IMG/VR virus record: IMGVR_UViG_2778261346_000016
Coordinates: 1-9,852 of that record
Direction: 5' to 3' (one strand)
Origin: a virus
Lineage: Duplodnaviria > Heunggongvirae > Uroviricota > Caudoviricetes
Length of the DNA stretch: 9,852 nt
Positions 689-2,455 of the stretch are shown here, one piece after another. The notes under the pieces are model-generated. The model worked only from the letters and a program-made list of their open reading frames with translations, was not told the DNA's origin and did no database searches. Position numbers and translations under genes: made by a program. Position 1 is the first letter of the stretch. Each line of letters starts with the position of its first letter.

Positions 689-973
689 TTATTCATTGCC
701 GATATTCACCTTTATCGCGAACACCTTTACCGGTTTATCGCCGAAGTGCGGATGTGTGATTGTCTTGATTTCATATCCGTCATACGGGACATCAATTCTG
801 CGACTGAAGTCGTCGCGCTTCGGATATCCCTTTGTGATAATCAGGCGGTCATATTCCCGGAACATAATTCGCTTATTCCAGTAGTCATTACACAGGCGAT
901 ACTCTTCCGTTTTCTCCCCGCGAATCATGGAATCGAAGTATTCACCTTTGACGGCAAGTTGCAGGTTAGCCAT
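689..973 (-). CDS. ASCH/PUA-like domain protein (tentative), 94 aa
   Basis: Track ORF 689..994 trimmed to the internal ATG at 973..971, which has a GGAGGT SD 7 nt upstream and forms a TAATG overlap with the upstream gene's stop. Motif LAVKGEYFDSMIRGEKTEEYR resembles the ASCH-fold beta-strand/GxKTxExR signature; the family call is from memory only. Confidence 0.45.
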   Translation of the reverse strand: MANLQLAVKGEYFDSMIRGEKTEEYRLCNDYWNKRIMFREYDRLIITKGYPKRDDFSRRIDVPYDGYEIKTITHPHFGDKPVKVFAIKVNIGNE

Positions 974-1233
974 TACCGCACCTCCAGTCTCCATACCGCC
1001 TGACCAATCCGGCTGGCATAGGTATCTTTGGATACTGCTCCGTCTTTAGCCAGCTCCATAAGAATTTTGCGCAAATCTGCCGAACGCCATTCTTCATCAG
1101 GAAATTCCTTCTCCATTGCCAACCGCAAATTCCAGGTTGCCATCCTGAATGGATATTCCCCACCGAGAGCTTTATCTTGCAGGGCAGCCCGGGAACGCAT
1201 CACCTGCAAAACCTTCTCTTTTACATCCATCAT
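973..1233 (-). CDS. hypothetical phage protein, 86 aa
   Basis: Track ORF 973..1305 trimmed to the ATG-ATG at 1233..1228, which has an AGGAGG SD 5-6 nt upstream and an ATGA overlap with the upstream stop (TGA 1232..1230). Its 3' end encodes the SD for the next gene. Confidence 0.5.
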   Translation of the reverse strand: MMDVKEKVLQVMRSRAALQDKALGGEYPFRMATWNLRLAMEKEFPDEEWRSADLRKILMELAKDGAVSKDTYASRIGQAVWRLEVR

Positions 1234-1943
1234 TTCGCCTCCTGCGGCGGTTCTGGTAGCGGCATCCAGTGTGACGGTTTCCACGACGCACCAGGAATTA
1301 TCCACCCATCATTAGCGTCAGGATGCCCGGGGATGTAAGTAGCCCATTTCATTCGCCAGTCACCTTTCCTGTCAAACTCCACGGCAACAAGAACGGCTGT
1401 TTTGGTATTCGGCATTCGCTCACTACAGCTTATCCAACCATCCGGAGTTGCCGGAGAGTTGCCCGATAGCTGGTTCAACTTGTAAGTTTGGCTTACAGGT
1501 TCGGCACCATGAAGCATGGCGTCGCTCCGCTCTATGCCATCCAGCGCGATTCGCAGTGCCTGAATTGTGGTAGAGCTATCGTTTGGGGCTATTCCATATC
1601 GCTCGAATACAGCTAAATGGTTGCGCATAATCTCAGGCGTAAGCTCTTTGTAAGCATAAGCAAGAGGCTCTGATGCATTATCCGGCACAACCGACGCAGG
1701 CGCGGCAGCATAAACAGGAATAACGTCCGCTTGCTCTTTATTGCTTTCATCCGTTAAAGACCAGAATAATTTCCCGGCCGGATGTTTGAAAATATAAGCA
1801 ACTGGATCTGCTTCCAGCGATGCCAGCGCAATTCGTGCCAGTTCTTCCGCCTCTTCTGCTGGCAGTACAACGTTGCTACCAGGTCCGTATGTTTCGCGCC
1901 ACTGCTTGATTGTCAGTAGTCGCTCTTTGGTAATAGTGATCAT
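1230..1943 (-). CDS. DUF551-like phage protein, 237 aa
   Basis: ATG 1943..1941 forms an ATGA overlap with the upstream stop; GAAGGA SD upstream. The Trp-rich C-terminal region GWISCSERMPN...WKPSHWMPLPEPP matches the recalled DUF551 pattern (WIS..ERLP...HWMPLPEPP). Confidence 0.6.
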   Translation of the reverse strand: MITITKERLLTIKQWRETYGPGSNVVLPAEEAEELARIALASLEADPVAYIFKHPAGKLFWSLTDESNKEQADVIPVYAAAPASVVPDNASEPLAYAYKELTPEIMRNHLAVFERYGIAPNDSSTTIQALRIALDGIERSDAMLHGAEPVSQTYKLNQLSGNSPATPDGWISCSERMPNTKTAVLVAVEFDRKGDWRMKWATYIPGHPDANDGWIIPGASWKPSHWMPLPEPPQEAK

Positions 1944-2455
1944 GCCGCGTTTCCTTCTTTCTTATTAACAATTACACCGTCATATATTTCATTAAGGTGC
2001 CCTCTCAACTCCATGCGCCTTAATGCAGATAACATGTAATCGCATTCAACCTGCTTATTCCCAGTAAATGGCTTATCGTCAGGATTACCCCAACAGCAAT
2101 TACCCTTGGGCCACCCATGTACTTTCCGTACTCTTCCGTTAACAACGTGAAGTAATCCCCAGCCAGGTGGTAAATCCTCAACTGAAATAATTCCCGGCTC
2201 ACTAATAAAGAATCGCCAGTCGCCCATTCCAAGAGATGGATTTTTACGAAAACGCTTTTTTCTATCTGCCAACAAGTCAGCACGAGAACACTTCGCCTCT
2301 ATCAGGCATGATGCTGAATTTCTGAATCCCATAGCATCTGGCTGTTCTCCGGTACTGGTTACAGCTATAAAGCGGTCATGAAAACAAACCTTGAACCCGT
2401 TGCGCTTAAGGAACTTATACGCAATCTGACAGAGTTCGCGGTGTGTTAACGCCAT
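1940..2455 (-). CDS. PD-(D/E)XK nuclease-fold protein (MmcB-like, tentative), 171 aa
   Basis: Track ORF 1940..2527 trimmed to ATG 2455..2453, with AAGGAG SD 7 nt upstream embedded in the preceding gene's last codons. Candidate catalytic motif EQPD...CLIEAK (PD-x(n)-ExK). Confidence 0.5.
   Translation of the reverse strand: MALTHRELCQIAYKFLKRNGFKVCFHDRFIAVTSTGEQPDAMGFRNSASCLIEAKCSRADLLADRKKRFRKNPSLGMGDWRFFISEPGIISVEDLPPGWGLLHVVNGRVRKVHGWPKGNCCWGNPDDKPFTGNKQVECDYMLSALRRMELRGHLNEIYDGVIVNKKEGNAA

Follow-up and report, generated by a model that had tools for sequence, protein, structure and literature searches.

Four overlapping genes stand side by side in the early region of a lambdoid phage, and they raise the question of whether so close an arrangement marks a dedicated functional module or a chance neighbourhood of mosaic phage genes. 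The genes occupy positions 689-2455 of a 9,852-nucleotide stretch of DNA, termed here the window, that comprises positions 1 to 9,852 of the tailed-phage record IMGVR_UViG_2778261346_000016 in IMG/VR. Coding in the window is entirely on the minus strand, and coordinates are window positions unless another record is named. In the direction of transcription the genes are designated D, C, B and A. An initial annotation had read them as one coupled unit, in which a candidate nuclease (D) and an ASCH-domain reader of modified nucleic acids (A) could serve anti-defence, exclusion or the sensing of modification. We argue instead that the four are separate accessory cassettes, placed next to one another by chance in a Shiga toxin 2c (Stx2c)-type phage, an explanation to which, taken as a whole, we assign a probability of about 0.75.

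Inspection of the interval confirmed four intact open reading frames (ORFs), chained by stop/start overlaps as first described. Gene D (1940-2455; 171 amino acids, aa) begins with an ATG at 2455, with AAGGAG placed 6 nucleotides upstream, and is followed by gene C (1230-1943; 237 aa), gene B (973-1233; 86 aa) and gene A (689-973; 94 aa). The junctions D/C, C/B and B/A (GCATGATC, AAATGATG and GTAATGGC) correspond to ATGA, ATGA and TAATG, respectively, and a Shine-Dalgarno-like sequence precedes the start of each gene. All four have homologue families of hundreds to thousands of members and are therefore real genes rather than chance ORFs. The overlaps do not set them apart from their surroundings. 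Position 2455 is no 5' boundary, for the preceding gene (2457-2645) ends a single base short of the ATG of D, and 12 consecutive genes, from ~5793 down to 689, are linked by -4, -1 or +1 junctions (with one of -8), the sole true break in the chain being a 72-bp gap 3' of gene A. Coupling is a property of the whole operon, not of genes D-C-B-A alone, and the supposed single unit merges into a chain that runs on upstream.

The constancy of the association was assessed in samples from IMG/VR comprising the 80 best loci per query, mostly prophages of E. coli with redundancy included. Downstream of D genes 99-100% identical to that of the window, 68 loci offered at least 2.5 kb of room and were counted: the DUF551 domain that forms the C-terminal part of gene C was present in 45 of the 68, the ASCH gene in 16 and gene B in 10, while the full set (the N-terminal part of C, DUF551, B and A) occurred in two and none of these elements in 15. 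When the sample was anchored on ASCH genes of 95-99% identity, D lay within 3 kb upstream in five of 77 loci. Among 33 loci from different species, spanning Enterobacteriaceae to Shewanella, Alteromonas, Salinicola and a Flavobacterium, one had an ASCH gene near D, about five had DUF551 there and none had B. No fusion of D to an ASCH domain was seen among the longer D homologues tested, and no profile of the PADLOC library of 2023 matched any of eight proteins, the products of genes A-D among them, at E <= 0.1. Genes D, C, B and A thus behave as independently assorting accessory cassettes. Independent assortment and the operon-wide extent of the overlaps together argue against a nuclease-plus-reader module, and with no PADLOC match the proposal of a unit for anti-defence, exclusion or modification sensing finds no support.

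The genomic setting is consistent with such assortment. Over window bases 600-2700 the sequence is matched at 100% identity by a prophage that lies next to sbcB in E. coli O145:H28 strains RM12581 and RM13514; in this prophage one flank of the block carries int and an AlpA/Xis-like gene and the other carries Ead/Ea22, Abc2 (anti-RecBCD), Erf, Kil and cI/cro/cII. The entire window is 100% identical to the record of an Stx2c-converting phage, the sole phage record to cover at least 80% of it; that record spans ~1.3 kb beyond the window. Positions 689-2455 thus form the distal end of the PL-driven early-left operon, also named 'exo-xis' or ea, in a prophage of lambdoid, Stx2c type. The exo-xis region is known for transcription from PL, for early expression, for being dispensable and for strong mosaicism, most of all in Stx phages (PMC10834534, PMC8614690). 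In RM12581 the Abc2 gene is interrupted by an insertion of the IS3 family of insertion sequences (IS), a second IS3 copy lying nearer the immunity region, whereas at window ~5965-6258 (compared with 17366-18972 of the RM12581 locus) a 97-aa Abc2-like ORF is intact. The window seems to derive from an IS-free copy of an RM12581-type prophage, although the Stx2c phage record identical to it also extends past it, as noted above.

Gene D is the member of the group whose predicted properties could be most closely defined. Its putative catalytic core, E37-Q-P-D40 ... E53-A-K55, is encoded at 2291-2347, followed by the conserved motifs R58-x-D60-x3-D64-x2-K67 (2255-2284) and G78-D-W-R-F82 (2210-2224), all on the minus strand. 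In an alignment of 31 homologues, E37, D40, E53, K55, R58, D60, D64, K67 and G78-D-W-R-F82 are invariant; in a broader set (34-57% identity) D40, D60, G78 and R81 remain so, and E37, E53, K55, D64 and K67 are each conserved in at least 90% of sequences. The AlphaFold2 (AF2) model contains the alpha-beta-beta-beta-alpha-beta core of the PD-(D/E)XK superfamily, with D40 at the start of strand 41-45 and E53-A-K55 at the end of strand 48-54. Among known folds, the closest beyond MmcB-like proteins were restriction enzymes and CRISPR ancillary nucleases; fold comparison also covered BFVD. No specificity or sensor domain is recognisable within the 171 aa.

Relatives of D in curated collections are distant. 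A profile built from the broader set matched the Protein Data Bank (PDB) entry 3DNX significantly, the D motif aligning with VD...IECKSSRADFQAD of that structure; the narrow profile of 31 homologues reached E = 0.17 only, and a search of the PDB with the D sequence alone gave nothing significant. The Pfam family MmcB-like (PF06319; gathering threshold 22 bits) was not matched by D even at E <= 1, was weakly matched by 10 of 40 divergent D relatives (best E = 2.9e-4), and scored 47 bits with the aligned 51-aa stretch of 3DNX. D alone matched no Pfam family, NCBIfam gave no hit for D or for any other of the proteins, and among PHROGs D had strong matches lacking a known function together with one weak match to a 'DNA repair protein'. 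Alignment and model together predict that D is a PD-(D/E)XK nuclease; its family, as yet without a name, is sister to the MmcB-like and Hjc proteins, and D scores below the Pfam threshold for membership of PF06319. What is new is that a common 'hypothetical' phage protein becomes assignable, on predicted grounds, to an MmcB/Hjc-like PD-(D/E)XK family with its putative catalytic residues defined.

The D family is very large, with 3,355 clusters (50% identity, E <= 0.001) and no Pfam model. Homologues occur in 642 phage records, temperate and virulent, including Stx1 and Stx2 phages, Vibrio phages and Ackermannviridae, the match in the last being limited to the N-terminal ~110 aa. Of 5,426 complete E. 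coli genomes 931 carry D, and Stx phage records commonly include it. Phage TL-2011b has an identical D in another operon, adjoining terminase genes. The range of the family takes in phages and probably further mobile elements. Of the 1,299 places that D occupies in complete E. coli genomes, 250 (about a fifth) are on plasmids of ~57-103 kb, presumably phage-plasmids, several of which also have DUF551 and ASCH neighbours.

The longer homologues tested join the D domain to Ead/Ea22 N-termini and, in one case each, to a DUF551 tail or a TniB-like ATPase. The Ead/Ea22 fusions add the nuclease to the swappable C-terminal domains of Ea22 described in PMC10834534. Certain prophages of Salmonella and E. 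coli have the D-type nuclease as the C-terminal domain behind an Ea22 N-terminal module of ~60-70 aa. The TniB-like case, a single cluster representative of 428 aa, joins an AAA+ ATPase to a C-terminal D-type nuclease domain, an arrangement that recalls TnsA/TnsC and similar transposition machinery.

Across the 33 loci from different species, neighbours of D, judged by their ORF sequence and not by profiles, resemble replication initiators, DnaC-like loaders, NinB/NinG, DNA methyltransferases, Ea22-like proteins and, in three loci, TraC-like proteins. The D homologues of Shewanella, Pantoea and Alteromonas adjoin TraC-like ORFs of 850-980 aa and small lipoprotein-like ORFs; the TraC likeness, read by eye from N-terminal sequence, suggests that these copies may lie within conjugative-transfer operons and not in prophages. 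Methyltransferase-like ORFs (of the cytosine-5 type, one with DPPY) stand beside D in about six of the 33 loci, with taxa as far apart as Kluyvera, Salinicola, a Rhodobiaceae metagenome-assembled genome and Flavobacterium among them. This adjacency could be due to chance, both being common early-region cargo, or could reflect a loose functional link.

Gene A has the features of a minimal, stand-alone ASCH-domain protein, as judged from its model and motif. The signature G19-E-K21-T-E-E24-Y-R26, encoded at 896-919 on the minus strand, conforms to the GxKxxExR motif defined in PMC6803910, with the same residue numbers in EOLA1 as in gene A; G19, K21, E24 and R26 are invariant among 26 sequences of the gene A family. 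The gene A model shows a beta-barrel of the PUA-like kind in which helix alpha1 separates beta1 from beta2, and the motif lies in the alpha1-beta2 region. The match to the Pfam ASCH family (PF04266) covers residues 6-28 only, at 14.1 bits (E = 0.079), below the gathering threshold of 21.2 bits. Neither the gene A sequence nor a profile of its family gave anything significant in the PDB, and because that search was empty the ASCH assignment relies on fold and motif. Activity of the YqfB type was considered and rejected: the catalytic Lys21/Thr24/Glu74 of that N4-acetylcytidine (ac4C) amidohydrolase correspond, by residue number, to K21/E24/H74 in gene A, and with Glu24 in place of the Thr24 nucleophile the same chemistry is not expected.

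Genes C and B differ in how much can be said of them. Gene C combines a mosaic, variable N-terminal part (aa 1-160) with a C-terminal DUF551 domain (PF04448; aa 169-234, encoded at 1242-1439 on the minus strand) that matches profile positions 1-68 of 68 at E = 2.2e-21 and 76.9 bits (threshold 22). Its N-terminal part matches several different PHROGs segment by segment, and downstream of identical D genes its identity varies from 49% to 100%. DUF551 is a portable domain, seen for example in Ea22 variant 2, where it is a variable C-terminal domain (PMC10834534), and in YfdS. Gene B matches phrog_2814 (E = 6e-52) and its homologues carry the NCBI name 'eaa protein'; searches of Pfam and the PDB with its sequence and profile produced chance coiled-coil-like matches only, none significant, and it is classed here simply as an Eaa-family protein.

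The domain assignments of the initial annotation consequently fare better than the use it made of them. The EQPD...IEAK string of D falls within a predicted nuclease fold with conserved catalytic residues, gene C has a full-length DUF551 match in Pfam, and gene A combines a predicted ASCH fold with the GxKxxExR motif. Profile searches upheld these calls in part, through Pfam for DUF551 and through the broad profile and 3DNX for D, while D and A themselves fall below Pfam thresholds. The idea of the ASCH protein as a reader of modified nucleic acid is likewise unsupported: ASCH proteins so far characterised are an ac4C amidohydrolase and a ribonuclease, not demonstrated readers of modified DNA.

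A dedicated module, in which the ASCH protein senses modified nucleic acid and directs or licenses nuclease D in anti-defence, exclusion or modification sensing, is accordingly very unlikely. It would gain from the adjacency of the genes, yet two unrelated genes separate D from A, the overlaps extend over the operon, D and ASCH pair in only 16 of 68 and five of 77 loci and in one of 33 species, and the fusions found join D to Ea22, DUF551 and TniB but not to ASCH, with PADLOC silent. A different objection is that D might be a decayed pseudogene. RefSeq record NZ_CP007136.1 confines D to a 'frameshifted' pseudogene at 2606774-2606952 (window 2277-2455), equal to its initial ~59 codons, with no annotation over window 1944-2276, and the 58-aa family phrog_16308, which matches D residues 1-55, indicates that truncated forms exist. 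The ORF is nevertheless uninterrupted over 171 aa with all conserved residues intact, it belongs to a cluster of 1,363 members of 171 aa at 99% identity, and other RefSeq genomes list 'hypothetical protein' coding sequences instead of pseudogenes under the same DNA, that for D not being singled out. Decay is thus extremely unlikely, and the RefSeq call is probably an annotation artefact stemming from the short phrog_16308 family.

It is also conceivable that D alone is an offensive or protective nuclease, one that degrades DNA of the host or of competitor phages (superinfection exclusion, host takeover) or counters host defence. Expression from an early operon, a wide distribution in temperate and virulent phages, occurrence beside TraC-like ORFs and the structural resemblance to restriction enzymes and CRISPR ancillary nucleases would all accord with this role, as would the methyltransferase-like ORFs, assigned by ORF sequence only, that flank D in about six of 33 diverse loci from distant taxa and recall restriction-modification pairs. 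Methyltransferases are common in early regions, however, and about 27 of the 33 loci are without one; restriction-modification-like pairing was for this reason discarded as a general explanation. The absence of a recognisable specificity or sensor domain and of any PADLOC match also argues against such a nuclease, and its nearest relatives in both sequence and structure are families of the repair or resolvase type. We regard this alternative as unlikely, if less so than a module. Rather improbable as well is a reading in which the D family comprises mobile-element nucleases with a specific role not yet recognised, for instance at the effector end of lysis-lysogeny regulators of the Ea22 type, or in counter-defence or DNA-damage tolerance as a nuclease that travels with mobile elements.

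In the explanation that we favour, of separate cassettes brought together by chance, stop/start overlaps would pack A-D in the same manner as the rest of the operon, and the four would be co-transcribed from PL early after infection or induction, probably with translational coupling, each product acting on its own. D would be a small metal-dependent DNA endonuclease employing D40, E53 and K55 together with E37 and the SRxDxxxD motif; it may, like MmcB or Hjc, cleave DNA intermediates that are branched or damaged and so aid replication, recombination or repair of the mobile element. We advance this substrate tentatively, at somewhat under even odds, by analogy with the nearest families (MmcB-like, Hjc and YraN) and from the frequent position of D among replication and recombination genes. 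Gene A probably binds RNA or a nucleotide ligand in its GxKxxExR cavity. C is regarded as a protein with the portable DUF551 domain and B as an Eaa protein.

Several considerations weigh against this explanation. A weak, non-obligate association could persist within the observed assortment, as in the co-occurrence of D with DUF551 in 66% of loci, and the counts stand without baseline frequencies of ASCH and DUF551. The PADLOC library of 2023 would miss newer families of defence and anti-defence. The functions of A-D are predictions from sequence, models and context, and AF2 models other than the best are of lower confidence. The proposed substrate of D derives solely from its nearest families, of which MmcB itself is biochemically poorly defined.

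The locus bounding these genes has additional features. Directly upstream of D, three small, very basic ORFs of 62, 58 and 58 aa (2457-2645, 2642-2818 and 2815-2991, within 2457-2991 on the minus strand) are coupled to one another by ATGA overlaps and to D, and are kept at 93-100% identity in many IMG/VR loci. The first two, both beginning MKNRKAK, resemble paralogues; the middle ORF lacks RefSeq annotation yet is 94-100% conserved in many IMG/VR loci. At the opposite end, two terminator-like hairpins (636-687, minus strand) lie inside the 72-bp gap directly after the stop codon of gene A, and another (214-233, minus strand) lies in the gap that follows a 114-aa gene at 272-616. These sites coincide with the only two gaps of an otherwise gapless chain. 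A scan of window 1-3200 for promoters and terminators showed no enrichment over shuffled sequence, making the hairpins weak evidence, and an Rfam search of the window returned no RNA family.

The significance of the locus is modest, since it is a stretch of ordinary mosaic exo-xis accessory genes. Its practical yield is that D, which is consistently named 'hypothetical' and mis-called a pseudogene in the RefSeq record of this strain, can be annotated as a putative MmcB/Hjc-like PD-(D/E)XK nuclease, and that a small ASCH protein can be separated from amidohydrolases of the YqfB type. Because exo-xis genes influence induction of Stx prophages, knockout of a nuclease located here would be reasonable, although not urgent.

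Comparison with known systems places each component in a familiar setting. The exo-xis genes of lambda and Stx phages (ea22, orf60a-73, ea8.5) and the ea genes of P22 occupy the same position, between the recombination genes and xis/int, and in lambda and Stx phages the exo-xis region shares with this one early expression driven by PL (inferred for the present operon), extreme mosaicism and Ead/Ea22 genes immediately upstream. The experimentally studied exo-xis genes include none of genes A-D, and the lysis-lysogeny effects of Ea22 and orf60a/61/63 are not transferable to them. With ASCH proteins (PF04266; EOLA1, ZmASCH, ASC-1, YqfB) gene A appears to share the beta-barrel and GxKxxExR at identical positions, but at only 94 aa it is a minimal version that falls under the Pfam threshold. 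For D, matches to archaeal Hjc (PF01870) and to UPF0102/YraN are sub-threshold, with structural similarity far below that to 3DNX. Its closest counterparts are the MmcB-like proteins (PF06319), represented by 3DNX (SPO1766) and by Caulobacter MmcB, an endonuclease of PD-(D/E)XK type that has been linked to the tolerance of mitomycin C and cross-links (PMC9578287), with which D shares predicted structure and a motif that includes SRxDxxxD. Whereas MmcB sits at an SOS-regulated chromosomal locus, D travels on phages and probably on further mobile elements, and unlike the MmcB-like proteins it has conserved G-D-W-R-F and C-terminal motifs of its own.
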